DNA of 64,000 nt from a virus. Positions 3,033 to 62,700 of the stretch are shown here, in pieces. The DNA lies in IMG/VR virus record IMGVR_UViG_3300032287_003712, positions 3,429 to 67,428 of that record; one strand, written 5' to 3'. The position numbers and the translations under genes are program-made. How positions within the stretch are numbered: the stretch's first letter is position 1; every line of letters begins with the position of its first letter. Below the pieces are notes generated by a model. The model saw only the letters and a program-made list of their open reading frames with translations, searched no databases and had not been told where the DNA came from.

Positions 3033-3559
3033 TGATTTCTTCAATCGGTACGTCCGCTACGGTTGCGGATTGGCTTGCGACACTGGAAAAGTCGCAAAAG
3101 GATGCGTTTGTTTTTTACGCCAAAAACGCCACGAGCGACATTGAAGCGTACCTGTACGCACGGTTTTTGACGCCGGCGTATACGGGCAGCATCTCAGATC
3201 TGACGGCGTGGGTACAAGAGAAATACCCTAAGGAAGATCTTAGGAAGGTCTTGCTCAGGGAAATTGATATGTTGCAGCAGGATATTACAGATGTACGGTC
3301 TATGACTGTGAACTCGGCCCTGGATCCGGCTACGGCGGCCACGAAGATCTCGGCGCTGCAGAAAGAACTGCGGTCACACATTCAAGCTGTGCGTGCAATT
3401 TCAGACGGTTTGGACCGGCGTGGTTTGTTATTGGCTGGCGCGGATCGATGTTTGCGCGAGTTAATGCAAACGTTTGAAGGCCAGCCTGCTATTCAAGCAC
3501 TGCTAGATGATTCAGCACTGTTGGTATGGTCTACGTTGGAGAGGGAGGAGAAGAGTTAG
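3029..3559 (+). CDS. hypothetical helical protein
   Basis: 176-aa ORF coupled to the upstream gene. Confidence 0.7.
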   Translation: MMISSIGTSATVADWLATLEKSQKDAFVFYAKNATSDIEAYLYARFLTPAYTGSISDLTAWVQEKYPKEDLRKVLLREIDMLQQDITDVRSMTVNSALDPATAATKISALQKELRSHIQAVRAISDGLDRRGLLLAGADRCLRELMQTFEGQPAIQALLDDSALLVWSTLEREEKS

Positions 3560-34915: not shown

Positions 34916-36172
34916 GTGCCGATATCTATTTTTCGAGCTGGCGAGACAATTACACCGGGAAATATTGTCGCGGTTACTCACAATTCCGTTGTTAAAAAAG
35001 CTTCGGTTAACGATCCGGAGACTTTTAGAGCTATTGGGGTAGCTACGACGTCGGGGTATGCGGGGGATGCTGTAAAAGTTGTTGTTGATGATCAGGTTCA
35101 TATTTTTTCTGGTTTAACTCCTGGCAGTCAGTTATATTTGAGCCCAACTCCTGGGCTTTATACGACTTCTTACACGACAATTACATCGGGTGTTGGCTTA
35201 TCGCTTAACGGATCCTCGAATTTAAGTCCGTTTGCTCGGGCTATTTCGGCGTCGGGCATAACGCTGCAGACTCCAGCCGCTGTGGTTGCTGATGTGTCTT
35301 CTGAAAGTATTGTTTTAGAAAATACGCCGACAAATAATATTTTTGGTTTTTTAACAGAGGGGTATTTTGATGTTGTAAAAGAATCTGGAGATTCCCCTTA
35401 TATTCCTTATGATCCCGAGGCATATGCTTATATACGTGCTGTCGAAAACGCAGACGGCCAGTTTTTAGAAAACAATGTGCGGCAGGCAATTGACAACTTC
35501 GTCTTGGGGTGCAAGGCGGATGGTATTTGGAGTGCCATTAAAGCAAGTTGCATCCTTGCTGGTGCCCGCACTCTGAGTGGGGCGCTGGTTCCGTTGGTTG
35601 GCACAGCACCTACCAATCCCAGCAACGTCTTTGTGCAGGCTGACTACAACCGAAAGACGGGGCTGGTGGGGAATGGGACCACAAAGTATCTGGATAGCGG
35701 CAGGTTAAGCAGCTCTGACCCGCAAGATAACGTTCATCTGAGCACTTATGTAACCACCGCAGCCAGTGCCGGAAACACCTTTTACATGGGCTCCGCTTCC
35801 ACAACTGAGGGCGGCAGTGAGTTAATACTTGGACAAACTACAACACCAGTCTTCAGAGTGCGGTGCAGGAATGGTACACCTTTTGATGTGACGGTGACAG
35901 GGGCTTTGGAAGGATTTTTTGGTGCTTCGCGATTATCTTCAGCCAATTTTACCGTAAGAGCAGGTTCGTCTAATGCAACAGCAACTAGTGTTTCTCAAAG
36001 TCTTACTACGGGGCTTCCACTTTATATTTATGGACGGTATCTGAACGGGGCGCTAGCTGCTCCTGTCAACGCCCGCCTCGCCTTCTACAGCATCGGCGAA
36101 TCCCTCAACCTAGCCCTCCTCGACGCCCGCGTCACCGACCTGATCAACGCATTCGCAGCTGCTATCTCATAA
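34916..36172 (+). CDS. fibre protein with C-terminal lectin-like module
   Basis: FRAGE...GN.V N-terminus, then AYIRAVE.ADG...GCKADGIW...DYNRKTGLVGNG..KYL...ARLAFYSIGE. Confidence 0.7.
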   Translation: MPISIFRAGETITPGNIVAVTHNSVVKKASVNDPETFRAIGVATTSGYAGDAVKVVVDDQVHIFSGLTPGSQLYLSPTPGLYTTSYTTITSGVGLSLNGSSNLSPFARAISASGITLQTPAAVVADVSSESIVLENTPTNNIFGFLTEGYFDVVKESGDSPYIPYDPEAYAYIRAVENADGQFLENNVRQAIDNFVLGCKADGIWSAIKASCILAGARTLSGALVPLVGTAPTNPSNVFVQADYNRKTGLVGNGTTKYLDSGRLSSSDPQDNVHLSTYVTTAASAGNTFYMGSASTTEGGSELILGQTTTPVFRVRCRNGTPFDVTVTGALEGFFGASRLSSANFTVRAGSSNATATSVSQSLTTGLPLYIYGRYLNGALAAPVNARLAFYSIGESLNLALLDARVTDLINAFAAAIS

Positions 36173-36207
36173 CAGACTGTATAATTTAAAAAAATAGTAA
36201 CCGCAGC

Positions 36208-37110
36208 GTGGCTTCCGAAAAGATCTCTCAGTTTCCGGATCTAACCGCTGTAGCTAGCGGTGACTTTTTTCCGGTCGTCGATATATCCGAAGCTGATCCA
36301 TATTTACAGAATAAAAAAGTACAAATTGGCGCACTTGATGCGCGTTACGTTAATGCAGACGGTGATACCGCATCTGGAACTTTTTCGTTCCAAAACCTTG
36401 TTATTCCTAGCGGCGGTTCGTTAACCCTTGCCGACGGCGCGACCGCATATAACCTTCCCGACACCACTCAACTTATTAACCGGTCGATTCCAGAAATAAA
36501 CCTGAACCTCGTCCGCGGCGACTCGTGGGATGGGTTCTATATGTATTTACAAGAGCCCGACGGCACTCCCTCTAACCTGACCGACTCGACTGTCTCCGCT
36601 TCCGCCCGTACATCAACCTACGCTCAGATCACCCCTCTGAACGCCACGATTGTTGGTCCGGCGTCCGGTTACGTCCGAATTTGGGGCTCGTCCGCTCAAA
36701 CTGCTCAGCTTCCTATTACTTCTGGCCAACAGGTTTTCTGGGAAGTCAGCCGCGTGTCTAACTCCCGCGTGGCTACGATTTCAGGCTTCACAAATAGCGC
36801 CTCGGGAACGCTTTCGGTCATCACCGTTGAATATCCCGGCGTTTCCTCTTACGACAACGTTTTTATCAGCGGTGTTCTAGCCAGTGGCTTGCCGGCCAAC
36901 ACATACAACGTTTTATATCCTACAACAACCAGCGGTCAGGATCGTCTTAACCTAATTACTTCTACTCCTCCGTATTCCTTCGCAATTCCTCAGTTATCTA
37001 CGTCCGGCACTGATGTTGCAGGTACCGGTGTATATCCTACGGGCGTCTCGTTATATCAGCGCCGCACGGATACGATGGTGCGCGGCATTATTTTTGTGAC
37101 GCTACCTTGA
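36208..37110 (+). CDS. baseplate/tail structural protein (BppU-like)
   Basis: KISQ(F/L) N-terminus and NL...RGDSW...PDGTP.NLT segment. Confidence 0.55.
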   Translation: MASEKISQFPDLTAVASGDFFPVVDISEADPYLQNKKVQIGALDARYVNADGDTASGTFSFQNLVIPSGGSLTLADGATAYNLPDTTQLINRSIPEINLNLVRGDSWDGFYMYLQEPDGTPSNLTDSTVSASARTSTYAQITPLNATIVGPASGYVRIWGSSAQTAQLPITSGQQVFWEVSRVSNSRVATISGFTNSASGTLSVITVEYPGVSSYDNVFISGVLASGLPANTYNVLYPTTTSGQDRLNLITSTPPYSFAIPQLSTSGTDVAGTGVYPTGVSLYQRRTDTMVRGIIFVTLP

Positions 37111-37195
37111 TTCAGTAACAGGATTCTGTTTGAAGAGGTAAGATGTGTAAAAGCCTCTTCTTTAGTTAACACTACCGAGGCGCTGCTTTAGACAC

Positions 37196-38950
37196 ATGGC
37201 GGACGTTAACGCGACAGTTATCACAATCGGCCGCACCCCGCCGATTCCGCCCGGCCAGCAGACGATGGAGAACAGTCTGCCCGTGGTTGTCGCGAGCGAT
37301 CAGACTGCCGTCCCCGTTTCAATTCAAAATCAACAAATCAGCGAAGTCAGCTTAAGCCTGCTGGGTATACCTAGGGCTGAAACTGCACTGGGTATTTTTT
37401 CTGACGTAACCACATATGATATTAACCCTAACGAATGGGCTAGCGCAGGGTCTGGCACAGTCGTTCACTTAGCGTCTGAAAGTGCTGCTCAAATTGTTGT
37501 TTCTGGTAACCAAACTAATAGTTTTGAGGTTCTAAGCAGTAAGCGTTTCTTCCGATATCAACCGGGTCGTGTCAGCTCTGCCACTTTTGGCGTCCGGTTT
37601 GCGTCTAGCACCGATGAAACCGATCTCAAGAAAGCTGGCGCATTCGACAGCCGCGACGGTTACTACTGGGAAGTTCAAGGCGGTTCGCAAACTTCTGCCG
37701 GAGATCCGCGCACTAATAAACCTGTAAATTTCTTAGCTGTTCGTCGCAGCAGCGCATTCGAAACTGCAGCGTCCGGCATTCGTTTCCCCGATCCCGCTGA
37801 TGGCGACCGGGGCACCGCCGGCACCGACCTCGTGATCGTGCGTGGCGGCCTCACGTACATTCACGCTGCGCTTTACGATCGCAGTCTTCGTCAAAATACC
37901 ACCGGTATCAACATCGGCGGTAACTCGTCTTCGACTGGTACGACGACGGTTTCCGGCAACTTCCTGACCGTTGCCAGCGGCTCGCGCTATACCTATGAGT
38001 ATCGCGTACCCCGTAAATATTTCAGCGGTGATCGTCTCGACGGCACGACCGATTCGCTGTTCTATTCCGATCGTACGCCCGGCAAGAACAGTTTCACCCT
38101 GCACGCCAGTGGTTCGATTGATCGTCCCTTAGTTTCTTACATCGACGGTTCGCGTGTTACCGATTCGGTCGGTAACTTCCTAACCGACACTTCAGTCTGG
38201 AACTACGACTTCACCAAAGTCACCATGCTGAAGATCGACTACTCCTGGTATGGAGCAGTCGGCGCCCGATTCTTCGCCTTGGTTCCCGATTCCACCACTG
38301 CCGGCACAGCCCAGTGGGTCCGGGTCCACGACATTCGCACGTCAAACCAGCTCGCAGGTCCGAGCCTCTCGAACCCGACGTTACCAATTACTTACGTTGC
38401 TCAAAAAGCCAACAGCGCTAACGACTCGACCGTCTACAAGTACGGTGCTTCGTACTACATCGACGGCGGCGACAAGGGCACCGTCGTGGCCAGGTCGGCT
38501 AGCAACGCGGCAGACCGCTCCGTCACAACTGCCGGCGAAGCACTGTTAGCTCTGCGCGTTCGCGAAAACATCAATAACGTTCGCAACCGTATGCAGGTCT
38601 ACCCGACCCGCCTCGGTGTCGGTACCAGCGCACGCGGCACTGTCAAACTCATTAAAAACCCTGTAATTATCTCGGGTTTCCCGACGTTCACGACCGCCGA
38701 CACCCTCAGCCCCATTCAGTACGCCGACGCCAGCGGAGTTACCGTTATTAGTGGCGGCACGACGGTTGCAACGTTCTTCGTTGGCGCAGGCGGCGTGGAT
38801 ATCGACCTGGCGCCTTACTTCGGATACAACAAAGACTACTTATCGTTCCCGCTGACTGCTGCGTCCGGCGACGCCCTGTATGTTTATGCTCAGAGTTCTG
38901 CTGGCACGATGAATGCCAGCACCTCCCTGACCTGGGAAGAGCAAATCTGA
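37196..38950 (+). CDS. virion structural protein, paralogue 1
   Basis: SLLGIPRAET, FRYQPGR, YSWYGAVGARF, YIDGGDKG and TWEEQ motifs. Confidence 0.7.
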   Translation: MADVNATVITIGRTPPIPPGQQTMENSLPVVVASDQTAVPVSIQNQQISEVSLSLLGIPRAETALGIFSDVTTYDINPNEWASAGSGTVVHLASESAAQIVVSGNQTNSFEVLSSKRFFRYQPGRVSSATFGVRFASSTDETDLKKAGAFDSRDGYYWEVQGGSQTSAGDPRTNKPVNFLAVRRSSAFETAASGIRFPDPADGDRGTAGTDLVIVRGGLTYIHAALYDRSLRQNTTGINIGGNSSSTGTTTVSGNFLTVASGSRYTYEYRVPRKYFSGDRLDGTTDSLFYSDRTPGKNSFTLHASGSIDRPLVSYIDGSRVTDSVGNFLTDTSVWNYDFTKVTMLKIDYSWYGAVGARFFALVPDSTTAGTAQWVRVHDIRTSNQLAGPSLSNPTLPITYVAQKANSANDSTVYKYGASYYIDGGDKGTVVARSASNAADRSVTTAGEALLALRVRENINNVRNRMQVYPTRLGVGTSARGTVKLIKNPVIISGFPTFTTADTLSPIQYADASGVTVISGGTTVATFFVGAGGVDIDLAPYFGYNKDYLSFPLTAASGDALYVYAQSSAGTMNASTSLTWEEQI

Positions 38951-38957
38951 GGCTCGA

Positions 38958-41300
38958 ATGACCGTTTTATCCGGATACTACCAGCTGCCTGAGGGTATCA
39001 GTACTGCTGGTCTCACCGCCACTGAAGTCGAATTATTAGATTTTTCGACTGGTCAGCTCCTGGTTGAATCCGGTACGAGCACGGTATTAACAGCTACAGA
39101 AGATATTGTCGTTGCATCTGGCGCCTTATCCGTGCCGGTTGTTATCAACAATACCTCCGAGTCTGTAATCTCCGTAAATGCGCCTAACTACGGGCAGCCT
39201 AGCGCCGTTTCTACGTCTCTTCTGGGCATACCTAAAGAGGAGACCAAACTTGCAATTTTTGAATCTGTAAATACTTACGGCGCGAACTCTCAATATTGGG
39301 GCTCATATGCAAGTTATACGTACTTTCAAGACCCTTCAGCGTGGACGTTTAGGGACACGTACGGATATTTTGCTCAGTCTCTGACAACTGAGGCTGCATT
39401 ACAGGCCTACGTGTACCCGGTGCCCGTCAGTTTCACGTATACTTACGACGATAATACAGGTCGTTACCCTGGCGGCTACACTAACGGTGTACAGACTGCT
39501 ATTTGGCGCACTAAGAAGAATTTTCGATACCAGCCTGGCCGGATCACGGGCGTCACACTTGGCGTTCGTATGTCTACGAACAGCCAGTTACCTGGCGAAG
39601 TGATTCAATGGGGCGTCAAGAACGATGTTGGCGACGGGTATTACTTCCAACTTGAGCGCGGCACGGATCTCTACATCGTCAGAACGTCCCCCGATTTAGG
39701 GACTTTAAAAGTTGCCCGTGACGACTGGAACGGCGACCCGATCACAGCAACTAGCCCCGCGGCGTGGAACTTAGATTTATCTAAAACCACCATGTTTGCC
39801 ATCGAGTTTGGTTGGTATGGTGCTATCGGTGCTCGTTTCCTAGCTTACGTTCCTAGCGCATACAGAGATTCTCGCTGGGTCGTGCTGCATGAAATTACAG
39901 CATGTAACGAATACGCGTATCCGAGCCTTCGTTCGCCGTTCATGTACGTGTTCGGCCAAGTTCAATCTGTTGCTGGCGCAACCCAACCAACATTTATAAA
40001 CCTTTACGGGTCCAGCGTTTACATCGATGGCGGCGACAAAGGTACGATTAACGTTAATAGTGCCGCTACTCCTACGCCGCTCTTAGTTGATTCAAAAGAA
40101 CGTACGTTACTAGGGCTTCAGATCCGACCCACTGTTAATAACGTTACAAACGTTCAAACAGCGTATCCGATTAGTGCAACGGCTACTGCTGATGTCGACG
40201 CAAAACTCAGTTTTGTATTTGCCCCTAATCGAACTACAGATATAAACTATTCTCCCGGTTACGGCACAATTTTAAGTCGAGGGGCTAGCGCACCTATTAC
40301 CGTAACTTGTCCGACTCCGACGACACTTAGCGGGTCGTTCCCGAATATCTCCGGTGAACTCAGCGGCACTTTGACGTATACGACGGGACGCCGCGTCAAA
40401 GTTGTTGGCGCCGGCATCTACGCCACTCATGTTCAGTCCGTCAGTGCCGACGGACGTGTCGTTACCGTCACTTCTCCTCAGGATTTGCCCTCTGGTACGA
40501 CGTCGGTCACGTTATCTCGATTCAACGCGTGGGCGCTAAGTAGCGGCACAATTTCGTCTGGAGTAACTCAAGGCTCTATTTATTACACAGATGGCGGCGG
40601 CTATTGGCGAATTGGACTTGTTCCTAACGCATCGGGCACCACGTACAACACGAACACGAACGTTGTCTGGGCTGCTACAAGTTATCCAGGCGTAAATTAC
40701 AACTTAGCAGGGCAGATTGTCGGCGAGTCGGCTTTCCCGCAAGACGACTACAGCACAAGTTTTACTATTACGTCCGGCACTAGCTCGACGATTACTGCCG
40801 GCGGCCAAACTCTGACTCTTTCCGGCGTAACTAACCCGTACCCGGTCAAGATTGTCGTAGAAATGCAAGATAACTCTCAGTTATCTGATTTAGTTTATAC
40901 AACTGTCAGCTCTTCTGCTATTACGAGCGCCCCTGCAAACTCCACCGTCGCACTTACGGAGTGGACAACCAGCGGCGTGGCAATCACCTCAACCGACGCA
41001 GGCGGTCCTACGTACCGCTCAAATCAATTCAGCGTTCCGTCGAGCAATCGCTTGTCCGCATGTCTTGTCGATACGCAAGGATATAGAATTTTAGAAACGC
41101 CAGAACGCGTCGCTACTTATTTTGTGGCAAGCGGCCAAGTCGTCACGCTTGATCTATCGAACATCTTCGGTCCCGACAAACGGTACCTGGCTGGTCCCCT
41201 TACCAGTGTATTCAGCACAGGCTCTCTTTACTTAACTGGTCAAGCGCGTACAGGTTCTGGATTTGCTCAAGCAACTCTTAACTGGGAGGAGCAACAGTAA
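38958..41300 (+). CDS. virion structural protein, paralogue 2
   Basis: SLLGIPKEET, FRYQPGR, FGWYGAIGARF, YIDGGDKG and NWEEQ motifs. Confidence 0.7.
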   Translation: MTVLSGYYQLPEGISTAGLTATEVELLDFSTGQLLVESGTSTVLTATEDIVVASGALSVPVVINNTSESVISVNAPNYGQPSAVSTSLLGIPKEETKLAIFESVNTYGANSQYWGSYASYTYFQDPSAWTFRDTYGYFAQSLTTEAALQAYVYPVPVSFTYTYDDNTGRYPGGYTNGVQTAIWRTKKNFRYQPGRITGVTLGVRMSTNSQLPGEVIQWGVKNDVGDGYYFQLERGTDLYIVRTSPDLGTLKVARDDWNGDPITATSPAAWNLDLSKTTMFAIEFGWYGAIGARFLAYVPSAYRDSRWVVLHEITACNEYAYPSLRSPFMYVFGQVQSVAGATQPTFINLYGSSVYIDGGDKGTINVNSAATPTPLLVDSKERTLLGLQIRPTVNNVTNVQTAYPISATATADVDAKLSFVFAPNRTTDINYSPGYGTILSRGASAPITVTCPTPTTLSGSFPNISGELSGTLTYTTGRRVKVVGAGIYATHVQSVSADGRVVTVTSPQDLPSGTTSVTLSRFNAWALSSGTISSGVTQGSIYYTDGGGYWRIGLVPNASGTTYNTNTNVVWAATSYPGVNYNLAGQIVGESAFPQDDYSTSFTITSGTSSTITAGGQTLTLSGVTNPYPVKIVVEMQDNSQLSDLVYTTVSSSAITSAPANSTVALTEWTTSGVAITSTDAGGPTYRSNQFSVPSSNRLSACLVDTQGYRILETPERVATYFVASGQVVTLDLSNIFGPDKRYLAGPLTSVFSTGSLYLTGQARTGSGFAQATLNWEEQQ

Positions 41301-41851
41301 TGCCACAGACAGGCCTCGAAGCTGCCGAGAACCTACGGGATCTAACGAATACAACAACAGCATGGAATAACTTGGGCGCCGGCGTCACGTACGCGTCTGG
41401 TGTTTCTACAGTTACTCTTCAAATCGTTGCTGGCGACATGTACGCCGCTAGCGGCGCGGCGTGCGTTCCTAGACAAGATTTACTTCTCCTCCGAAATCTG
41501 AGCGATCGGGTTCAGCCCCGAATGACCACGATCTCCGGCGTGGTTGCCAGCGGTCTCGGGCTTCGCGATAAAGCTTTACCTAAATTAAATCCCACGTCCA
41601 GTGGATTTTTTGGCATTACTGAAGGTGTGCTTAGCGGCACAGCTCTTCGGATTAACGGTGTTGCTGTTACATCTCTGTCTACTACACCATTTACCGGCAC
41701 GACTGCAATATCTCCTATTAAGTTGGACACAATTCGTTTGAGTACGAATGTCCGCTGGGCCCAACCGGTTGTTTCAGGAACTTTAGCTAGCGGTGTTAAA
41801 GCTATTCCTGTTCAGTACGGCGGTTTTATAATGTATCTTAAAGCTGGCTGA
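41300..41851 (+). CDS. tail-associated protein
   Basis: GL.A..NL.DL.....AW.NLG N-terminal motif, shared with 41854 and 48229. Confidence 0.6.
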   Translation: MPQTGLEAAENLRDLTNTTTAWNNLGAGVTYASGVSTVTLQIVAGDMYAASGAACVPRQDLLLLRNLSDRVQPRMTTISGVVASGLGLRDKALPKLNPTSSGFFGITEGVLSGTALRINGVAVTSLSTTPFTGTTAISPIKLDTIRLSTNVRWAQPVVSGTLASGVKAIPVQYGGFIMYLKAG

Positions 41852-41853
41852 TT

Positions 41854-43200
41854 ATGGCGCTTTATCAGCGATACGGCTTACGTGCTGATTTAAATTTATC
41901 TGACGTCGCTAGTCGTAACACGACTTGGGATAACTTAGGGTTTACTCGATCTGATTTAGCGTGTTTAGTTAATACAGGCGCATCGGGTGTCACCGCTGCC
42001 GATTATATTGCTTGTTCTGGCCTTAGTTACAACTTAGAGACCCAAGTCGTCGCCGTCCTGCCGCGTGCCCTTAGCTACGTAAATCAACTTGGCCAATACG
42101 TTTCGACGTCTGGCGATACCCGCATCAACTCAATCTTTGCCAATACGGTCAACAACGACCGTGGCTACTACGACACCTCTAACTACATTTATTCAACTTC
42201 AACTAACACCTTTTTCTCTACCACTAATTCCTCTGGACTTTACACTCAGGAAGCTCAGTACTTACTCGGTCCGGTTCGCGCCACGACTGCGACCATTAGT
42301 GGTCTGAACTTCCGCGGCGATGCCAAGGATTTCAGCTCATACTACGTACAGTACAAGCAATATCTACAAATTCAAGAATCGCCATCTTTTGCTACTCGGT
42401 ATACGCCGACATACCTGGCGCCCCCGACTGCGTACGCATCCAACATTCTTTGGTTTGACTCGGAATACAGCGCCGTTTCAATTGACGGCAGCCGCCGCGT
42501 GGCCTCCTGGTCTGACGTCATGGGGCGCGGGTCGGCTGTACAGACAACTGACGCCAATAAACCGTTATACACGCTCAACTTGTTAAATAATAAGCCTGGC
42601 GTTGTTTTTGACGGATCGAACGACTTCTTAACGATTCCACAAGCCTCGATCCCGGTCACCGATGCGGCCACCGTGGTCATTATCGCACGCGTACAGGATA
42701 CTGAGTACAACATCATGGGCAACAGCCTTAACACGGCTGCTCGCTGGCGCAGTGCTTCTACTGGTGACGGAAACTTTGGACTGTTTGTTAAGCAAGCAGG
42801 TACCGCGACGACGCCCGTTCCAAACTTCCCCTCTGCGATGCCAGCTAACGGCACACTGTTGTTCAGCATCCGCGCTAACCGGGCGTTTGGTTTGACTTTT
42901 GACGTCAACAAAGCACGTAGCGTTCCGTATCCTGGCGGTCAATTTGAGTTCGTTAATACCGGCACGATGTATATCGGCACCGCTGTTGACGGTTCTAGCG
43001 GCGCCTTTAACGGGGAAATTTACGCTATTGCAATATTCAATGCTATTTTGTCGGACTTAGAACTCTCCAGCGTGGAAGAATATTTTGCATGGCGTTATAA
43101 TTTCGTGTATGACCCCGAACGATTCCAGCCCATAGAAGCTGAGCTAGAATCAGACGGAGACTTTAAGACTGAGAACTTCGTCTCGTTCCAGATTGGGTAA
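41854..43200 (+). CDS. tail protein with LamG/concanavalin-like domain
   Basis: LWFD, V.SW.D, NNKPGVVFDGSNDFL and FNGEIY...FN..LS..E...VE.Y. Confidence 0.7.
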   Translation: MALYQRYGLRADLNLSDVASRNTTWDNLGFTRSDLACLVNTGASGVTAADYIACSGLSYNLETQVVAVLPRALSYVNQLGQYVSTSGDTRINSIFANTVNNDRGYYDTSNYIYSTSTNTFFSTTNSSGLYTQEAQYLLGPVRATTATISGLNFRGDAKDFSSYYVQYKQYLQIQESPSFATRYTPTYLAPPTAYASNILWFDSEYSAVSIDGSRRVASWSDVMGRGSAVQTTDANKPLYTLNLLNNKPGVVFDGSNDFLTIPQASIPVTDAATVVIIARVQDTEYNIMGNSLNTAARWRSASTGDGNFGLFVKQAGTATTPVPNFPSAMPANGTLLFSIRANRAFGLTFDVNKARSVPYPGGQFEFVNTGTMYIGTAVDGSSGAFNGEIYAIAIFNAILSDLELSSVEEYFAWRYNFVYDPERFQPIEAELESDGDFKTENFVSFQIG

Positions 43201-43202
43201 TT

Positions 43203-45431
43203 ATGCCAGCGGGATCCGGAATCAGAATTAGCCAGCTTACCGACATTGGCTCTGGCTTAGCTCCTGGCGACCAGTTTATTCTCCGAGACGTTAGTGATGC
43301 TGTTACGCCTAACAAGGCTGTAACCATCAGTGGTTTATCTGCGTATTTCAACTTAGGTACTGCCGGCGGCGGTTCGTTTGTACCGAGCGAAGCCGAGGCT
43401 GAATCTGACGCCCGCATCCAGCGCGACGGTTATCAACGAAGCGGTTTCATCACGCGTGGGAACGCAGTTGTTTTTGCGTCGGGTATTCGCACAACGAGCA
43501 CCGTTGTTGACACGTTCCAAGTCGGCGATAGCACGGTTTCCTTTAACCCTGATGCGTCGTATCCGTACATTAATGCTTTCGGATACCCTCTGCGTGTTGA
43601 GTACGTAAACACTACTACAGCACTCACAAACCGGGTTCAACTGCCTCCCGCTTCGTCAGGCACTGAGACTTATAACACCACCACAAACGTCTATACGGTT
43701 TTTTCTGGGTATCAGCAAGCATTTGATACTGATACTCAGTCCATTACGTTTAACCAGGCTCAAACGCTTGCCGACAACACCGTTATTACTCAGTCGGGTA
43801 ACTACGATGTTCTGATTCTGTCGGCCACCGCTAGCGTGCCGGCCGGCTCCGTCGTGACCCAGTCTGGTATCACGGCCAGCGGCGTGGTCCGACGCAGTAC
43901 TTACGGTTCGTACGCGCTAGAGGTTTACCGGTTGTCGGCTAGCGGCTTCGCGGCGGCCGGTTCTGGTTATCAGTTAATTTCGACCGTTACGGGGTCCGGT
44001 CTCGGCTCCACTGTGTTCCCTAGTGGCGTCAGTACTTCTGGATTCCTTGCGTCTGGTCTGACCTTCGGTTCGATTACATCGAACGTTTCGGTCACGATGG
44101 ACGGCTTAACCAGCCAGCCGTTCGTGGCCATATCGGGGTTTGAGGTCTCCGGCAGCGGCGTTACCGCAGGTACTTATCTAACTACGGTCGGTTCGCGTAC
44201 CTCTAACGTCATTCTGAACCGTCAAGACCTCGTCGCGCTTGAGGTTTGGCACGAGAAAGTTAACGCACGAGACTACGTCTATCCGTACGGCAACATTCAA
44301 AACTCGTCGATAACTTACACGGCGCCAGACGGGACCTCGCTGTCGATGGCACCGCCTTCCAGTGGTACCGCCACGACTAATGGCAGTGGGTACGGCACAG
44401 AGTTTTCAACATACTGGGGCAGCGTCACGCATCGAGGTGCGGCTGTGCCTAGCTCGCAGACCTACAGCTTGTTCGGTAGCTGGCAGGCTGCTGGCGGTCT
44501 GGTCGGACGCGGCACGCGGTGGTCGACTCTGACGACGACGGCTCAGAAGAGCTTCGCCGCAGACCCGAATAACAACATGTATTTCAGTGATGACGGCGAC
44601 TTCGTGCAAGTCCGTTATCGCTTCAGGACCCTGGCCGGTTACGGCAGCGACTGGACTGGGTATGATCCGGCCCAACACGCCGACATCCGATACGAAAACG
44701 CTTGGAGTATGTATCTCCAAGGCCAGACCTCGTCTGCGTCGGGTGATTTCGAGAGTACGGACCGCTGGTCTCAGATCACCAGCCCGTATACCGACGACGG
44801 CCTGTGGCTGGGAACCCGTTTTGCGTACAACAACAAAGCGTACGCGCTGCCGATCGCGCTGGTCGCCCGCCGCAACCAGGGCGCTTATCACCCGCTGCTG
44901 AACCCCAGTGGCGCCGCCACGTTCATCAATACGAACGGTTCGACCGAAACGACTTACGCCACGACCGATCAATCCGTTCTGGCACCTGTCGATGCGTTCA
45001 AGTTTGTTAAAGCTGGTGAAGGTGCTATTGGTCAGACCAGCGGCCGTGATGACGGCTATTTCTATGACGGCATTGTGTGGGTCGACATTAACGACCAGCG
45101 CAAGCAAGCGTTTAATGATCTGACGTATAACATCGCGGGCACGGAGCCGGACAACGTGCCGCTGGTCGGCATGCTGGGCCAGCTTGCGTTCATGGACGAC
45201 TACGCGCCCGCAGGTATGCGCCCGGCCGGCGGCGGTTTGGATTATTTCCAAGTGATCGCGTCCGGTACGACGGGTAGCGGTGTGCTGGCGATGAACAACG
45301 TTCAGGTCAGCGGCACCGCTTCGGGTCTGTTTACTACCGTTGTAAATAAACCCGGTACTCAATCCGCTGCCAGCACATGGGTCAGCGTGGTTATTGACGG
45401 TACTCAGTTCTATATGCCTGCCTGGCGCTGA
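43203..45431 (+). CDS. long tail fibre/spike protein
   Basis: RISQL N-terminus, S/T/G-rich, 742 aa, in the tail module. Confidence 0.65.
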   Translation: MPAGSGIRISQLTDIGSGLAPGDQFILRDVSDAVTPNKAVTISGLSAYFNLGTAGGGSFVPSEAEAESDARIQRDGYQRSGFITRGNAVVFASGIRTTSTVVDTFQVGDSTVSFNPDASYPYINAFGYPLRVEYVNTTTALTNRVQLPPASSGTETYNTTTNVYTVFSGYQQAFDTDTQSITFNQAQTLADNTVITQSGNYDVLILSATASVPAGSVVTQSGITASGVVRRSTYGSYALEVYRLSASGFAAAGSGYQLISTVTGSGLGSTVFPSGVSTSGFLASGLTFGSITSNVSVTMDGLTSQPFVAISGFEVSGSGVTAGTYLTTVGSRTSNVILNRQDLVALEVWHEKVNARDYVYPYGNIQNSSITYTAPDGTSLSMAPPSSGTATTNGSGYGTEFSTYWGSVTHRGAAVPSSQTYSLFGSWQAAGGLVGRGTRWSTLTTTAQKSFAADPNNNMYFSDDGDFVQVRYRFRTLAGYGSDWTGYDPAQHADIRYENAWSMYLQGQTSSASGDFESTDRWSQITSPYTDDGLWLGTRFAYNNKAYALPIALVARRNQGAYHPLLNPSGAATFINTNGSTETTYATTDQSVLAPVDAFKFVKAGEGAIGQTSGRDDGYFYDGIVWVDINDQRKQAFNDLTYNIAGTEPDNVPLVGMLGQLAFMDDYAPAGMRPAGGGLDYFQVIASGTTGSGVLAMNNVQVSGTASGLFTTVVNKPGTQSAASTWVSVVIDGTQFYMPAWR

Positions 45432-45433
45432 TC

Positions 45434-46654
45434 ATGAGTGATTATCCGACATCCCGTCCGCGCTTAGTACTTGATTTTGCTAATTCGAAAAAGCTAGATC
45501 GTCGAATTACATTTCGTCGGTCCTCGTCCGGTACTTATGTTGGCGCGGACGGGTTAATTAAGACTGCGAATATTGATCAGCCTCGGTTCGATCACGACCC
45601 GGTTACTGGGCAGAGTTTGGGGTTGTTGGTGGAAGAGAGTAGGACGAATTCTTGGACATACAGCGAACAACTTGAAAATGCAGCGTGGACAAAGACTGAC
45701 ACAACAGTAACAGCAAATTCAGCAACTGCCCCAGACGGAACAACTACAGCAAGCAAAATTACTTCTACTGCGACGACTGCCGTACATAGCATCTCTCGCC
45801 TCAAAACAGTTGTATCTCCCGCATGGGTAACGGTTTATCTAAAGGCAGCCGAATATACTATTTGCGATGTATACGATGTAAATATCGACACAGGGTTTCG
45901 TATCAACTTGTTGACGGGTGCTCTTTCTGAATCTCCTGCTTTTGTAGGCAAGTTTATAAGTGGGAGATACGGCATTAGTTCCGCCGGAAACGGTTGGTTC
46001 CGTGTGCAACTTGGTTTAGCTACCTCAGACGCAACAGTAAATAATCCTGTACGCATTTATCCCAACGGCGCTCAAAGCTATTTAGGGGATGGCACTTCCG
46101 GCATTCTTGTCTGGGGCGCCCAGCTAGAAGCCGGCGCCTTCCCCACCTCCTACATCCCCACGGCGGGCTCAACCGTAACCCGCAGCGCGGATCTGGCGAG
46201 TATTACGGGGACGAATTTTAGTTCGTGGTATAACTTTAACGAAGGTTCGTTATGTGTAGAAACGCCTCAAGGTTTAGTTTTGCCTACATCAGCTAACACT
46301 ACGGTATTAGGGTTTTCTGCCGGAACTTTATCTGCCAGTTTGTCAACAGGCGACGGGATTAAATACGGTAGTGGAAACACTGGTACAAATACTAGAGTTC
46401 AAATTATCACTAACAGCAGCACGGTTTTTGATAACGGTTCCTCTACTAACGCTCGTAAAGTCTTAATTAGTTATAAAAAAGATAATTTTGCTATTGCGAG
46501 AAACGGCGTTTTAGGAGTAGACAATAGCGGGGACGTGCCACTTACTGTCGATAGATTTACTTTACGAGCCGGAGGGGCCACTTCTTACTCTCGTATTCTT
46601 TACTGGCCCAAACGCCTGCCCGACTCCCAGCTCATCGCCCTAACCCGGCGCTAA
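45434..46654 (+). CDS. tail fibre/receptor-binding-like protein, paralogue B
   Basis: Same conserved blocks as 3556 and 47069. Confidence 0.75.
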   Translation: MSDYPTSRPRLVLDFANSKKLDRRITFRRSSSGTYVGADGLIKTANIDQPRFDHDPVTGQSLGLLVEESRTNSWTYSEQLENAAWTKTDTTVTANSATAPDGTTTASKITSTATTAVHSISRLKTVVSPAWVTVYLKAAEYTICDVYDVNIDTGFRINLLTGALSESPAFVGKFISGRYGISSAGNGWFRVQLGLATSDATVNNPVRIYPNGAQSYLGDGTSGILVWGAQLEAGAFPTSYIPTAGSTVTRSADLASITGTNFSSWYNFNEGSLCVETPQGLVLPTSANTTVLGFSAGTLSASLSTGDGIKYGSGNTGTNTRVQIITNSSTVFDNGSSTNARKVLISYKKDNFAIARNGVLGVDNSGDVPLTVDRFTLRAGGATSYSRILYWPKRLPDSQLIALTRR

Positions 46655-46680
46655 ACTGACTAATAACCCCACACAGCACA

Positions 46681-47064
46681 ATGTACGCCGCATATTACTT
46701 ACGTTTTGCAGACGAGACGGAAGGCAACACAGTACTGAGTGCTGTTGGATATCGTACGTGTCAAATGGTGCCGGCGCCCCCGGCGGAGCCGGTAGAAGGC
46801 GAACCCCCAGCCGAAGACCCTGCGCCCGAAGTCGAACAGTGCTGGTACACGACCGGCGAACAAGACGGCGCCGTGGACATTGTCGGCACTCTGTATAACA
46901 ACGACGCCGTTATCGATCCGGATACCGGCGAAACCATCACGCCGCCGACCCCCATCCCCGGCTGGCACGTCAATATCGCACTGTCCGGCGCCCTGCCCGC
47001 CGACCTGCAATCTTATCTTGTTGAACCTCAGCACCCCCGTCGCATTTTCGCTGGTTTAGGTTGA
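46681..47064 (+). CDS. fibre-associated small protein (putative chaperone/tip)
   Basis: YLRFADE...DIVGT...GWHVN...P..P.RIFAG, located between fibre paralogues. Confidence 0.6.
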   Translation: MYAAYYLRFADETEGNTVLSAVGYRTCQMVPAPPAEPVEGEPPAEDPAPEVEQCWYTTGEQDGAVDIVGTLYNNDAVIDPDTGETITPPTPIPGWHVNIALSGALPADLQSYLVEPQHPRRIFAGLG

Positions 47065-47068
47065 TCCG

Positions 47069-48187
47069 ATGTCTGATTATCCGTCGATTCGCCCCAGCCT
47101 TAATTTAAATTTTGCGCGGACGAAGAAGCTTGACCCGCGTATTACGTTTCGGCGGTCGTCGACGGGTACGTATGTTGATTCGGATGGGTTGATTAAGACT
47201 GCGGGGATTAATGTCCCGCGGTTTGACCACAACCCCACCACGGGCGAAAGCCTGGGGCTGTTGGTGGAGGAGGCGAGGACGAATGTAGTTACCTATAGCG
47301 TGATTGACGCTACCAATTGGACTACAACTGACGGAGCAACAATCACGGCCAACGCTGCGGTTGCACCCGATGGAACCCTTACAGCAGCATTAGTTACATT
47401 TCCAGGAGCTAATGTTCCCAGAATCAATAGATCTTTAACTGTTGGGGCGGGAACCGTTACTCAAACAGTATGGCTCAAGGCTGTCACTGGAACCGTGTCG
47501 ATACGGGTCGGCAATCCAAGCGATTACGGTGCCAACCAAACGATAGGAACTACTTGGACTCGCGTATCCGCTTCCTACGCATCCGGTAGCAATTCGTTTG
47601 GCATTTATTGCTCTAGCCCTGTATCAGCAGCATCGTTCTATGCCTGGGGTGCCCAGATGGAACTTGGCTCCTTCCCCACCTCCTACATCCCCACGACCGC
47701 ATCAACCGTAACCCGCAGCTTGGATTTGGCGAGTATGACGGGGACGAACTTCAGCTCGTGGTATAACCAGAGCGAGGGAAGTTTATTAACAATCGCAGCA
47801 TTTCCGGCAAGCGGCACCCGTGGTCTGGCTCAAATAGCCTCTAATAGTCCTTCTTCAAATGTAATTGGAAATATAGTCGTAAATAACGCCGATCCTCGAT
47901 TGAGAGTAGTATCAAATTCAATCCAACAAGCCGAGATACAATCAGGAGGTCCGTATCTTTCAAATTCTATATGCAAACTTGTTTCTAGATTTTCGTTAAA
48001 TGATTTCGCTGTTTGTTTTAACGGCGGTAGTCTTACTTTTGATAAATCTGGGTCATTACCTATTGTTGATAGATTGGGTATTGGGCGTGATTTTGTATCT
48101 GGATTTTTGAACGGCACCATTTCCCGCATCGCCTATTGGCCAAAACGCCTACCCGACGCGCAGCTCCAAGCCCTAACCCGGCGCTAA
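47069..48187 (+). CDS. tail fibre/receptor-binding-like protein, paralogue C
   Basis: Same conserved blocks. The C-terminal module is homologous to paralogue A. Confidence 0.75.
   Translation: MSDYPSIRPSLNLNFARTKKLDPRITFRRSSTGTYVDSDGLIKTAGINVPRFDHNPTTGESLGLLVEEARTNVVTYSVIDATNWTTTDGATITANAAVAPDGTLTAALVTFPGANVPRINRSLTVGAGTVTQTVWLKAVTGTVSIRVGNPSDYGANQTIGTTWTRVSASYASGSNSFGIYCSSPVSAASFYAWGAQMELGSFPTSYIPTTASTVTRSLDLASMTGTNFSSWYNQSEGSLLTIAAFPASGTRGLAQIASNSPSSNVIGNIVVNNADPRLRVVSNSIQQAEIQSGGPYLSNSICKLVSRFSLNDFAVCFNGGSLTFDKSGSLPIVDRLGIGRDFVSGFLNGTISRIAYWPKRLPDAQLQALTRR
47132..47179 (+). repeat. 48-bp perfect inverted repeat of 4681..4728
   Basis: GACCCGCGTATTACGTTTCGGCGGTCGTCGACGGGTACGTATGTTGAT occurs here and as its reverse complement at 4681. 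Confidence 0.9.
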
Positions 48188-48228
48188 TTAAATGCCTAGA
48201 TTTAAAATAATGTATATGCCTGACTGAC

Positions 48229-60538: not shown

Positions 60539-60577
60539 TTAATAATGCTAATCAAGCCCCAGTTTACCCGATCTTAA

Positions 60578-62686: not shown

Positions 62687-62700
62687 TAGTAGTACCTAGA

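Follow-up and report, generated by a model that had tools for sequence, protein, structure and literature searches.

Mirror-image silent-site skews border exchangeable modules in tail or baseplate protein genes of a cyanophage-like virus and in related phage genes

Introduction

Diversity-generating retroelements and invertase shufflons diversify phage tail proteins at their receptor-binding ends, and the exchange of tail-fibre motifs among T-even phages is the classic case of exchange at module boundaries. With regard to silent sites, the closest known kind is GRINS, a class of bacterial skew repeats in which G+T and C+A skews are correlated, peak at third codon positions and have been tied to gene conversion (PMC8256042). 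As defined in that paper, GRINS are >500 bp long and share >80% identity with a second copy within their cluster; phages are mentioned a single time in its main text, as a category in SI Fig. S7.

The window analysed here is a 64,000-nt stretch (positions 3,429 to 67,428) of IMG/VR record IMGVR_UViG_3300032287_003712, a cyanophage-like virus whose record of 67,428 bases is 84% complete by CheckV. A sequence-only reading of the window had described variable fibre cassettes framed by G/T-rich upstream and C/A-rich downstream arms, and proposed a possible undescribed diversification system. The term undescribed was too strong, as comparable skews tied to gene conversion were reported as GRINS in 2021 (PMC8256042), although the skewed arms in this phage are, at 57–114 nt, far shorter than the GRINS definition.

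Results

Four genes, A to D, were tested, of which A, B and C are paralogs (Table 1). The proteins are lectin-like (LamG or jelly-roll) tail or baseplate proteins. The AF2 model of A is confident and has two domains (pLDDT 87.4, pTM 0.84), with Foldseek best matches to baseplate chains of Pseudomonas phages Pa193 and E217, CBM40 and laminin LG4-5. Each domain of A, B and C consists of a variable middle between conserved first and last strands that are encoded by the arms. Gene D has the same DNA layout, but the structure model of its protein is of too low quality for the arms to be located on it. The phrog_17104 module of D is widespread (E <= 0.001 for 6615 of 8000 scored candidate proteins) and often forms a stand-alone protein of ~260 aa; no profile similarity was detectable between the D and A families (hhalign probability 1.4%).

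Table 1. Positions of genes, arms and modules in the window, with counts of bases at third codon positions (G3, C3, T3, A3) over the number of codons.
Feature	Position	Strand	Description
Paralog A	3556..4791	-	411 aa, tandem LamG-like tail/baseplate protein; phrog_5939, PHROG E 3e-105
A arm 1	4552..4629 (codons 55-80)	-	G/T-ending codons, domain 1 first strands; G3 17, C3 3 /26
A variable module 1	4117..4551	-	aa identity 31% to B, 19% to C; third positions without skew
A arm 2	4042..4116 (codons 226-250)	-	C/A-ending codons, domain 1 last strand and linker; C3 17, G3 2, T3 0 /25
A arm 3	3961..4035 (codons 253-277)	-	G/T-ending codons, G weak, T strong; G3 6, T3 11, C3 6, A3 2 /25
A variable module 2	3640..3960	-	Type as C module 2; aa identity 52% to C, 16% to B
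A arm 4	3583..3639 (codons 385-403)	-	C-ending codons, domain 2 last strand; C3 8, G3 2 /19
Gene D	34916..36172	+	418 aa; C-terminal 260 aa = phrog_17104, PHROG E 7e-82
D left patch	35552..35620 (residues 213-235)	+	Family G3 0.54 vs 0.28 expected; D itself G3 6, C3 6 /23
D variable module	35723..36055 (residues 270-380)	+	Majority-residue conservation 0.23-0.47 over most of residues 270-378, <=0.57 at one patch (residues 333-344)
D right arm	36056..36169 (residues 381-418)	+	C-ending codons; C3 27, G3 1 /38
Paralog B	45434..46654	+	406 aa; phrog_5939, E 5.8e-85
B arm 1	45596..45673	+	G3 12, C3 3 /26
B arm 2	46109..46183	+	C3 17, T3 0 /25
B arm 3	46184..46258	+	G3 9, T3 10, C3 3 /25
B arm 4	46586..46651	+	C3 12/22
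Paralog C	47069..48187	+	372 aa; phrog_5939, E 1.1e-90
C arm 1	47231..47305	+	G3 12/25
C arm 2	47639..47716	+	C3 15/26
C arm 3	47717..47791	+	G3 11/25
C arm 4	48104..48184	+	C3 14/27
Exonuclease	59759-60538		phrog_298
SSB-like ORF	62701-63345		Sub-threshold, 20.6 bits vs cut-off 26

For each of 70 ORFs, 1000 within-gene synonymous shuffles that retained the protein and the gene's own codon use were scored by the range of G3–C3 in 15-codon windows. The four genes under test ranked as the top four for local swing between G3 and C3 (z 6.0, 6.0, 5.3 and 3.2 in descending order), followed by the portal gene (z 3.0). The range in A was 24 (shuffled 13.6 ± 1.7), in D 22 (12.5 ± 1.6) and in B 21 (12.7 ± 1.6), each reached in 0/1000 shuffles, and in C 19 (13.6 ± 1.7), reached in 4/1000. 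G-ending codons before and C-ending codons after the modules thus occur beyond chance and, as these extremes persist with the protein sequence fixed, are not the product of amino-acid composition, which the sequence-only reading had named as grounds for its own refutation. Two of its details were altered. In D the C-rich right arm is as described but the left G-rich arm is faint, with equal G3 and C3 over the left patch and a sole clear G excess of +8 at ~35651-35695. Inversion of the pattern with minus-strand gene A does occur, but is automatic, because a layout of G/T on the left and C/A on the right is its own reverse complement.

The pattern is a property of gene families, not of this phage, and ~150 related phage genes show the layout. 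Among 80 IMG/VR homologues (from 576 confirmed matches; 37–51% identity to A), the G+T third-position excess over expectation was +0.26 at codons 61-72, -0.34 at 235-246, +0.15 at 265-282 and -0.24 at 385-396 (A numbering), and ~0 in the modules. When genes were divided by module GC3, which ranges from 0.09 to 0.67, every quartile kept the pattern, with G3>C3 in 83/83 for arm 1 and C3>G3 in 80/83 for arm 2 and 79/81 for arm 4, where family-wide C3 is 0.53–0.60. A replicate set of 70 further non-identical metagenome homologues gave 68/70, 68/70 and 66/68 respectively. The G excess of arm 3 is weak (G3>C3 in 54/83 and, in the replicate, 47/70). The 78 homologues of the D family likewise have a variable region preceded by a G patch and followed by a C patch, with C3 of 0.64–0.68 in the right arm against 0.34–0.37 expected. 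Skew in the A family ranged from -.35 to +.29 and in the D family from -.33 to +.25, whereas the terminase family, a control of 80 sequences with well-diverged silent sites, ranged only from -.13 to +.12.

Within the arms it is the base that is retained and not the codon. Among the 80 homologues, residue L64 is encoded by TTG in 38 and CTG in 37, R70 by CGG in 40 and AGG in 26, and S242 by AGC in 44 and TCC in 32. The same amino acid changes its codon with the arm, Glu being GAG in 54–61 of 80 on the left and GAA in 72 of 80 on the right, and Ile being ATT in 60 and ATC in 64; Tyr in the right arm is TAC in 76. These codon family switches bear on the highly improbable reading that horizontal transfer has recently spread one and the same arm DNA, with the G/C excess a founder accident. 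Arms at >=85% DNA identity are indeed common to many contigs from several metagenomes, and where residues are identical, their third positions agree more often in arms (0.49–0.57) than in modules (0.37–0.43). However, the third base is kept through the switches TTG/CTG, CGG/AGG and AGC/TCC, the layout is common to two families that lack detectable profile similarity, and a founder accident would not yield mirror-image skews at four arms.

The skew is also strand-symmetric, the codon-class frequencies of left and right arms being near mirror images. Fourfold sites are G.53, T.22, A.14 and C.11 in arm 1, and C.50, A.27, T.14 and G.09 in arm 2; G makes up.77 of NNR sites in left arms and C makes up.79 of NNY sites in right arms. 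Keto skew over arms 1 to 4 is +.48, -.50, +.31 and -.42 at position 3 and -.01, 0, 0 and -.18 at positions 1+2.

Mirror-image frequencies are what long-range pairing would need, in which a G/U-rich left arm and a C/A-rich right arm form a stem in mRNA or single-stranded DNA that closes each module. The sequence-only reading had seen the arms as imperfect reverse complements and possible fold-back signals. Its 18-mers do match at 14/18 positions, and the predicted duplex of arm 1 with arm 2 averages -39.4 kcal/mol (-62.2 in gene A), but right arms with shuffled codon order pair just as strongly (mean -39.5, z -0.02, n=81), and the same holds for arm 3 with arm 4 (z +0.45, n=79). The best shared 18-nt register pairs just 0.62 of cells, the excess of pairing over independent columns is +0.002 ± 0.008 with a maximum of +0.039 (60 and 62 distinct sequences), and no Rfam family was found in the window. 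With neither register-specific complementarity nor covariation, the fold-back helix is not supported, and pairing as the source of the skew is considered very unlikely.

A purely mutational footprint is also improbable. In such a footprint one strand would repeatedly be exposed as single-stranded DNA at each arm, and deamination of its C and A would produce C>T and A>G in left arms and the complementary changes in right arms. The polarity would suit 3' tails pointing into the module, A is down and G up in left arms while T is down and C up in right arms, and mutational origins were also weighed for GRINS by the authors of PMC8256042. The sequence-only reading had given such a strand-specific bias as its first alternative, yet a deamination-type footprint is not supported: T at left fourfold sites and A at right ones should rise, but fall from 0.35 to 0.22 and from 0.32 to 0.27. 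In addition, the gain of G is drawn from all three other bases, NNY sites in left arms barely shift (C 0.33 vs 0.39–0.40), and the skew peaks are fixed to the same few codons in ~150 diverged genes.

Rare codons are conserved position-specifically in other proteins, and an effect on the kinetics or accuracy of translation was likewise weighed. As G/T-ending codons are wobble-decoded, they could slow the ribosome after each domain and aid co-translational folding, while C/A-ending codons, being Watson-Crick-decoded, could provide fast and accurate reading of the most conserved strands. Consistent with this, the arms lie at domain boundaries of the confident two-domain model, and the major-capsid ORF of this phage also favours C-ending NNY codons (NNY C 0.82). 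However, the same ORF has almost no A at fourfold sites (0.01), and G is its preferred base at NNR sites (0.60). By its standard the right-arm codons GAA, CAA, CTA, TCA and GTA, used in this phage despite these preferences, count as non-optimal, and GAG and CAG of the left arms as optimal, contrary to the prediction. Translation gives no reason for near-exact complementary frequencies in left and right arms, and the pattern is indifferent to background GC3, the skew being independent of host codon use. Members of the D family are mostly stand-alone proteins, so no earlier domain would be folding during a pause at the D G patch. On balance the translational reading is unlikely.

The variable modules, which would serve host recognition, can be exchanged as cassettes, and these exchanges break in the conserved arms, as the sequence-only reading had anticipated. 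In three pairs of homologues (L014/L036, L006/L007 and L027/L060) the DNA is identical or nearly so up to ~A codons 250-277 (in L027/L060 only from ~codon 30), divergent through module 2, and identical again from ~387-393; module 1 is swapped in the pairs L013/L061 and L021/L043. Among 68 transition events, 25 of the 29 from high to low identity fall at codons 260-279, and the 39 from low to high fall at codons 220-239 (25), 20-49 (10) and 380-389 (4). Transitions in the replicate set agree (7/9 and 13/16). Crossovers within identical DNA cannot be located precisely, so conserved arms would emerge as breakpoints whatever the mechanism of exchange.

Many unrelated metagenome contigs have the arms alone in common. 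In four metagenome runs, contigs of >=85% identity stack on the arms to a depth of 132–241, compared to ~8–12 or less in the flanks, and a share of 0.34–0.99 continue into unlike sequence. At B arm 2 the depth was 212 in run X3 and 147 in X4 (flanks ~9 and ~0–2), with loose contig ends at 46108-46125 and 46158-46162. At C arm 1 (bin 47109-47294) it was 146 in X1 and 241 in X3 over flanks of ~8–12, with loose ends at 47211-47234 and 47280-47284, and at C arm 3 (bin 47667-47852) 132 in X4 and 56 in X3. Paralog repeats in the window are 54–206 nt long at 72–85% identity, and no recent conversion tracts were found among A, B and C, whose arms 1 and 3 resemble one another no more than they resemble those of other phages. 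The A gene family is absent from five complete relatives (TerL 87–91% identical).

No match to RVT_1 or to the resolvase family was found in the 67,428-base record, in agreement with the sequence-only reading on reverse transcriptase and, for the resolvase type, on invertase. No recombinase was identified in the record. A dedicated enzyme system is not supported, since the exonuclease and the sub-threshold SSB-like ORF are all that lies nearby, and nothing ties either to the arms.

Discussion

The best reading of these data, to which we give about an even chance, is that the arms are joints for recombination carrying a strand-polar bias at silent sites. Arm DNA would be the homology used by phages for whole-module exchange, and a DNA-level force would act on its silent sites with a polarity that reverses from one side of the module to the other. 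This force would retain G, and then T, on the strand that runs 5'->3' towards the module, so that the coding strand would have G/T-ending codons in left arms and C/A-ending codons in right arms. From the observed skew, its conservation and mirror symmetry, and the swaps that break in the arms, we infer where the DNA breaks, which strand invades and why G is in excess. The module may be lost to a break or gap, and 5'->3' resection would then leave both 3' tails G/T-rich, the type of single-stranded DNA that gives the most stable RecA filaments in vitro. These tails could invade the corresponding arms in another phage or in a paralog, with the donor module filling the gap. According to PMC3763553, filaments of E. 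coli RecA in vitro are most stable on TGG-repeat or TG-rich single strands, while their nucleation is unaffected by TG-rich sequence or Chi. The G excess could be selected as a signal, or arise as a side effect of mismatch correction in heteroduplex that is polar and protects G; both fit the geometry and the data do not separate them. The depletion of G at NNR sites in arm 2 (0.17 vs 0.31–0.39 in modules) is unexplained by the polar mismatch-repair model.

Like diversity-generating retroelements and shufflons, this pattern targets the receptor-binding ends of tail proteins. It differs from them in that no reverse transcriptase or resolvase-type invertase was found in the phage record, that paralog arms were the only repeats found and no template/variable repeat pair was among them, and that, unlike in diversity-generating retroelements, whole domains differ and not scattered adenine-coded positions.

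The arms also resemble Chi and the GT-rich, TGG-repeat DNA preferred by RecA, as presented in PMC3763553, in being G/T-rich in a strand-specific manner. Octamers identical to E. coli Chi, from which the host's Chi may differ, lie on the coding strand of A arm 1 (4593-4600) and the template strand of A arm 2 (4066-4073), both facing the module. Across the families the octamer occurs on the bottom strand of arm 2 in 28/83, the top strand of arm 1 in 6/83 and the top strand of D-left in 21/81, with 0 on the opposite strand of each, and in 0/83, 0/83 and 0/81 for arm 3, arm 4 and D-right. It is probably a by-product of the skew and not its cause, because G3 coding of Gly-Leu-Val and the complement of Pro/Ala-Thr-Ser(AGC) yield it.

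At the protein level, the hotspots and linkers of receptor-binding proteins (bioRxiv 10.64898/2026.05.12.724579) are similarly described as conserved stretches of ~20–35 residues in otherwise different proteins, which act as module exchange sites at boundaries. The words 'skew' and 'synonymous' occur 0 times in the text of that preprint, and a strand-polar silent-site bias at the joints is no part of the hotspot concept.

As described in PMC8256042, GRINS share with the phage arms skews of G+T against C+A that switch abruptly along one strand and peak at third positions, a location inside functional genes for modular proteins, a tie to gene conversion or recombination that diversifies the modules, and a cause that is unexplained. 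In GRINS, conversion acts on the skewed DNA itself, whereas the phage arms flank unskewed variable modules, are short, as are the paralog repeats that contain them, leave amino-acid composition unshifted with skew of ~0 at positions 1+2, and have a polarity fixed relative to the module. GRINS are recent and lineage-specific in that account, whereas the phage pattern is conserved in ~150 diverged genes, where it marks the sites of module exchange.

Genes and predicted proteins of the tail region

The virus record is 67,428 bases long, with the window representing bases 3429-67428, and is 84% complete by CheckV. A large terminase, a portal, a major-head-protein ORF and a primase are encoded in the window, with no tRNA genes. 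Over its full length the terminase shares 52.4% identity with its counterpart in Synechococcus phage S-EIV1, the other listed phages being at ~26% or less. The major head ORF (17975-18742) aligns with the 356-position major-head profile over positions 137-343 only, and an ORF for a LAGLIDADG homing endonuclease (16884-17684) lies between it and the ORF at 15798-16547, an arrangement which suggests that an intron or intein carrying a homing endonuclease interrupts the capsid gene (15798-18742).

The three paralogous genes A, B and C each contain two variable modules (1 and 2) flanked by four short conserved arms (1-4). Arms 1 and 3 lie to the left of a module and arms 2 and 4 to the right. Neither these genes nor D, a gene of a second family, gave a Pfam family above cut-off. 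An AlphaFold2 model of protein A from a 41-row alignment (pLDDT 87.4, pTM 0.84) consists of two β-sandwich domains, with the variable modules predicted to form the middles of both lectin-like domains. Foldseek matched this model in the PDB to baseplate or tail-fibre chains of the Pseudomonas phages Pa193 (9b45_1, E 3.3e-11) and E217 (8env_K, E 2.6e-10), followed by sialic-acid-binding CBM40 modules and laminin LG4-5 pairs. On this confident model the A-family proteins are tail or baseplate proteins with tandem LamG/concanavalin-like lectin domains, as in PB1-like Pseudomonas phages, and from the fold and the PHROG label we infer a putative receptor-binding role. The model of the C-terminal domain of D (13-row alignment, pLDDT 56.4) was too poor for structure search or arm placement. 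A small ORF between B and C (46681-47064) encodes an acidic, proline-rich product of 127 aa (phrog_18574), and metagenome contigs from X2 and X3 extend over it with 96-98% identity.

Genes, predicted placement of the arms on the model of protein A, and Chi octamers in the window
Feature	Position	Strand	Assignment or placement
Large terminase	7148-8668		
Gene A	3556-4791	minus	PHROG 5939 'tail protein'
Gene B	45434-46654		PHROG 5939 'tail protein'
Gene C	47069-48187		PHROG 5939 'tail protein'
Gene D	34916-36172		C-terminal 260-residue module is PHROG 17104, which has no assigned function
Arm 1			Predicted: first strands of domain 1
Arm 2			Predicted: last strand of domain 1 and inter-domain linker
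Arm 3			Predicted: first strands of domain 2
Arm 4			Predicted: last strand of domain 2, up to start of C-terminal helix
E. coli Chi octamer	823, 4066, 4593, 21928, 22367, 35662		Three of six in skewed patches

Silent-site skew in the four window genes

Third positions read in 15-codon windows showed long near-pure G and near-pure C runs at the places where the sequence-only reading had described skewed arms beside the variable modules. In arm 1 of A, 17 of 26 codons end in G against 3 in C; in arm 2 of A, 17 of 25 end in C against 2 in G and none in T, and arm 2 of B also has 17 of 25 ending in C. The reading had extended the pattern to D, which holds for the C-terminal right arm (27 of 38 codons ending in C, one in G) and is weaker in D's own left arm, which is barely G-rich. 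The reported inversion of the pattern with the gene in copy A is automatic, as a layout of G/T on the left and C/A on the right is its own reverse complement.

The skew was measured against 1000 within-gene synonymous codon shuffles per ORF, in which the protein and the gene's own codon use are retained. A, D, B and C were the four most extreme of 70 ORFs (z 6.0, 6.0, 5.3 and 3.2), the observed range being reached by no shuffle of A, D or B and by 4 of 1000 of C, and the portal gene ranked next (z 3.0). Since the shuffles preserve the protein, amino-acid composition does not explain the skew, and its disappearance under such control, which the earlier reading had allowed for, did not occur. 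The adjacent paralogous virion structural genes at 37196-41300 (584 and 780 aa, both phrog_1645) have no unusual skew (z 0.5 and -0.4), so that skew is not common to all fibre-region genes.

Other skewed stretches are present in these genes. Across the 64 kb, keto skew in 150-nt windows is most extreme inside the 'variable' modules: the start of module 1 of B (45631-45840) is C/A-rich (keto -0.32, z -3.7) and the stretch before arm 4 of C (47941-48150) is G/T-rich, mostly through T at third positions (keto +0.31, z +3.3), both being absent from the family profile. The N-terminal conserved region is rich in G-ending codons in C (codons 16-45, 47114-47203) and A (codons 16-30, 4702-4746).

Skew across two gene families

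Searching IMG/VR with protein A yielded 576 confirmed relatives, of which the best 80, 37-51% identical to A, were kept; no homologue above 51% identity was found in the IMG/VR and metagenome scans. In the codon alignment of these 80, the fraction of codons ending in G is 0.53-0.56 at codons 56-75 versus ~0.15 in the modules, and that ending in C is 0.54-0.59 at codons 231-255 and 0.49-0.60 at codons 381-405. Relative to the codons expected from the family's own pooled codon use, which controls for amino acids, arms 1-4 have an excess of G+T-ending codons of +0.26, -0.34, +0.15 and -0.24, and both variable modules one of about zero. At fourfold sites the left arms have G.53, T.22, A.14 and C.11 and the right arms C.50, A.27, T.14 and G.09, the class frequencies of the two sides being nearly exact complements, as also for NNR codons ending in G (.77) on the left and NNY codons ending in C (.79) on the right.

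Third-base use by codon class in the A family
Region	NNR as G	Fourfold G	NNY as C	Fourfold C
Arm 1	.77	.53	.33	.11
Arm 2	.17	.09	.79	.50
Modules	.31-.39	.16	.39-.40	.17-.18

At individual arm columns it is the base rather than the codon that is conserved, the third base being kept across codon families (Leu64 TTG 38, CTG 37; Arg70 CGG 40, AGG 26; Ser242 AGC 44, TCC 32). Glutamate is GAG on the left and GAA on the right (72 of 80), isoleucine is ATT on the left in 60 versus ATC on the right in 64, and tyrosine on the right is TAC in 76. The signs hold in each quartile of background GC3, which ranges from 0.09 to 0.67. G-ending codons outnumber C-ending ones in arm 1 in 83/83 sequences and C-ending ones predominate in arm 2 in 80/83 and in arm 4 in 79/81; arm 3 is weaker (G over C in 54/83). 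A replicate set of 80 metagenome-contig loci, reduced to 70 non-identical homologues by removal of 10 duplicates, gave the expected sign in 68/70, 68/70, 47/70 and 66/68 for arms 1-4. Codons 19-36 of the A family are mildly C-rich at third positions (0.38-0.42 versus 0.25-0.26 expected), and N-terminal swaps break at codons 20-49.

The C-terminal module of D has at least 6615 protein relatives, mostly stand-alone and of ~260 residues, and its hhalign comparison with the A family shows no profile similarity (probability 1.4%). Among 78 IMG/VR homologues, with two 91%-identical ones left out, a G patch at residues 219-230 (0.54 versus 0.28 expected) and a C patch at residues 381-398 (0.64-0.68 versus 0.34-0.37 expected) enclose the variable stretch at residues 270-378. 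The excess ranges from -0.35 to +0.29 in the A family and from -0.33 to +0.25 in the D family, compared with -0.13 to +0.12 for 80 terminase sequences taken as a control (third-position identity 0.45 at identical residues). The skew is confirmed and is a property of gene families, far broader than could be seen by a reader of the window. The sole profile alignment between D and A joins the C-terminal arm of D (36080-36140) to the N-terminus of A (4720-4785) over 18 columns (44% identity, E 0.037), and may represent chance or a shared junction motif.

Module exchange and its breakpoints

Module 1 of A is of the type found in B (31% identity versus 19% with C), and its module 2 is of the type found in C (52% versus 16% with B). 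Across the family, mean pairwise amino-acid identity is 0.65-0.69 in the arms versus 0.21-0.29 in the modules, with 11 pairs at least 70% identical in module 1 and at most 40% in module 2, and 4 pairs the reverse. In three pairs of homologue loci (L014/L036, L006/L007 and L027/L060) the DNA is identical or nearly so up to about codons 250-277 of A (in L027/L060 from about codon 30), module 2 has diverged and identity resumes at about codons 387-393. Codon-by-codon comparison showed exchange of module 1 in L013/L061 and L021/L043.

A systematic scan gave 68 transitions, which are counts of pairs rather than independent events and can be placed only to the arm where a crossover lies within identical DNA. 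Identity falls at codons 260-279 in 25 of 29 high-to-low transitions; the 39 low-to-high transitions fall at codons 220-239 (25), 20-49 (10) and 380-389 (4). The replicate set has its transitions at the same places (7/9 high-to-low, 13/16 low-to-high), and in the D family all 17 low-to-high transitions lie at residues 380-399. The clustering of transitions in the arms in both sets supports the earlier proposal of cassette exchange with breakpoints there. The arms are short conserved stretches at the exchange boundaries of otherwise dissimilar proteins.

Contigs of four public metagenome runs (X1-X4) were placed on 43203-48756 at ≥85% likeness. Summed depth was 132-241 on arm bins, with flanks at ~8-12 in X1 and X3 and ~0-2 in X4. 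Loose contig ends fell at 46108-46125 / 46158-46162 and 47211-47234 / 47280-47284, and 34%-99% of placed records continue into unlike sequence. The depth on the arms and the unlike continuations indicate that the arms are common to many other community sequences at the DNA level and that the modules between them are not. Contig joints were considered as rearrangements of this genome; having short sides or low likeness, they are read as other phages sharing the arms. X2 and X3 contain contigs 95-99% identical to the flanking genes which leave most of the modules of B and C uncovered, such contig gaps being no evidence of absence.

Concerted evolution of the paralogs' arms was rejected: the N-terminus, arm 2 and arm 4 have their closest counterparts within the genome, arms 1 and 3 do not, and no recent conversion tract is present. 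In five relatives with complete or nearly complete genomes (G001-G005, the records behind L170, L172, L174, L224 and L222; TerL 87-91% identical) nothing matches 43203-48756 at the DNA level or A at the protein level, so the three-copy fibre gene family is accessory in this lineage.

Possible causes of the skew

The sequence-only reading had described the arms as imperfect reverse complements that might act as fold-back signals. The match is 14/18, no better than composition gives. Predicted duplexes of arms 1 and 2 are strong (mean -39.4 kcal/mol); codon-order shuffles of arm 2 give -39.5 (z -0.02, n=81), and arms 3 and 4 likewise do not differ from shuffles (z +0.45, n=79), which argues against a helix in RNA or single-stranded DNA. 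In a covariation scan no antiparallel register paired above the independent-column prediction (+0.002 ± 0.008), and an Rfam scan of the window gave no match. The complementarity between arms is compositional only.

The same reading had also proposed a strand-specific mutational footprint. Deamination of exposed single strands would raise T on the left and A on the right, but fourfold T falls from 0.35 to 0.22 and A from 0.32 to 0.27, and at fourfold sites of left arms G gains from all three other bases. Plain GC-biased conversion is contradicted by the rise of G without C on the left and of C without G on the right (NNY as C 0.33 on the left; NNR as G 0.17 in arm 2). Use of optimal codons is contradicted by the capsid ORF of this phage for A-ending and NNR codons: its fourfold A is 0.01 and its NNR sites are NNG at 0.60, whereas CTA, GAA, CAA, TCA and GTA are conserved in the right arms. 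Translation as a cause gives no account of the near-exact complementarity of left and right class frequencies. Were the cause translational, the arms would show with unusual clarity synonymous selection that is position-specific and conserved across hosts.

A DNA-level, recombination-linked cause is favoured, because the skew is independent of host codon use and its islands coincide with exchange joints, and the complementary class frequencies point to one process on opposite strands. The strand with its 3' end directed toward the module is the one that carries G, and then T, and a break or gap in the module followed by 5'→3' resection would leave both surviving tails G/T-rich. According to PMC3763553, RecA filaments are most stable in vitro on TGG-repeat or TG-rich single strands, and that paper refers to previous studies of a GT preference conserved among recombinases. 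Alternatively, the same polarity would arise without selection if mismatch repair of the end-directed, long-patch type overwrites the invading strand but spares each G that G:T- and G:A-specific glycosylases protect, so that G would accumulate there. As for dedicated enzymes, the region 59759-63345 has an exonuclease and an SSB-like ORF below threshold, with no tie to the arms found.

As an extension of the recombination-linked cause, it is possible, though rather doubtful, that receptor-binding modules carry a shared, oriented 'joint code', in which junctions are C/A- and then G/T-ending at silent sites and the strand running 3' into the module is G-rich. Such a code would be a general strand-polar recombination standard, allowing in-register, one-direction exchange of lectin-like modules among unrelated phages, and would represent a viral miniature of the process that makes GRINS, the skewed repeats of bacteria. 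If the skew does mark recombination joints and their polarity, sequence alone would suffice to recognise swappable host-recognition modules in uncultured phages and to place their borders exactly. This would also account for module movement between phages with almost no other common DNA, and would provide a rule for designing module exchanges in phage-host pairs of the laboratory.

Comparison with known systems

Diversity-generating retroelements have a reverse transcriptase and a template/variable repeat pair. No PF00078 match was found in the 67-kb record (84% complete), control genomes did match, and no such pair was found among the repeats of the window. Shufflons of the Cin/Min type have a serine invertase and short inverted crossover sites; the record has no match to PF00239 (resolvase-type invertase), and the sole inverted repeats are the arms of A against those of B and C, 40 kb apart.

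Chi hotspots are octamers that differ between hosts and are read by RecBCD/AddAB in a single orientation. The E. coli Chi octamer, which may not be the host's, occurs six times in the window versus 1.56 expected, with 0/100 shuffles reaching six. It faces the module in arms 1 and 2 of A, and in the families it is present in the module-facing orientation only and in three of six arms only. The orientation is striking, but the absence from three arms argues against Chi as the signal, and the octamer is treated as a by-product because it follows from G-ending coding of the common residues Gly-Leu-Val. A plus/minus pair (21928 and 22367) faces inward within an ORF with no assigned function (21271-22938).

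Short conserved recombination hotspots in receptor-binding proteins are known; a preprint (bioRxiv 10.64898/2026.05.12.724579) treats them at protein level, with no mention of skew or synonymous sites. Skewed silent sites at tail-fibre joints were not found described in the literature, where the supplement of PMC8256042 (SI Fig. S7, phage category), outside the search, may bear on the point. No paper was found on 'TSYIPT', and matches for GRINS with phage tail fibre were unrelated by title.

The formal definition of GRINS, taken here from PMC8256042, does not apply to the arms. GRINS exceed 500 bp, compared with repeats of 54-206 nt and arms of 57-114 nt in this work, and are >80% identical within a cluster or genome, compared with a borderline 72-85% here: four of eight paralog repeat pairs reach 81-85% (D2 83, D3 85, I3 82, I4 81) and four are at 72-78%. 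The mean absolute GC and TA skews of GRINS are >0.15 in 150-nt windows, which are longer than the arms and dilute their signal. At all positions the GC skew of the arms is ±0.2-0.35 with inconsistent TA skew, and the whole-window GC/TA correlation is -0.05 in 150-nt windows. GRINS also shift amino-acid composition (Gly/Val versus Pro/Thr), whereas the arms do not, their keto skew being +.48, -.50, +.31 and -.42 in arms 1-4 at third positions and -.01, 0, 0 and -.18 at positions 1+2. Furthermore, here short skewed arms frame unskewed variable cassettes with fixed polarity, conserved over ~150 diverged genes.

The arms nonetheless have, as GRINS do in the same text, correlated G+T and C+A skew focused on third positions and abrupt sign changes on the same strand. 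Third-position GC/TA skews are +.61/+.30 in arm 1, -.63/-.30 in arm 2, +.15/+.52 in arm 3, -.73/+.19 in arm 4, +.35/+.39 in the left patch of D and -.70/-.02 in its right arm, with signs agreeing in four of six. Both are linked to gene conversion in modular proteins and have no established cause; recombination diversifying modules is seen here through the arm breakpoints, the window paralogs being without recent conversion. Phage tail-fibre mosaicism is in this way linked to a bacterial phenomenon that has lacked an explanation since 2021, and the arms provide a much smaller test object for it, with 60-110 nt, third positions only and hundreds of natural replicates. Were the joint code true, arms of 60-110 nt would offer a compact means of tracing what causes GRINS. 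By analogy, the case is best placed as GRINS-like, a known kind lacking explanation.
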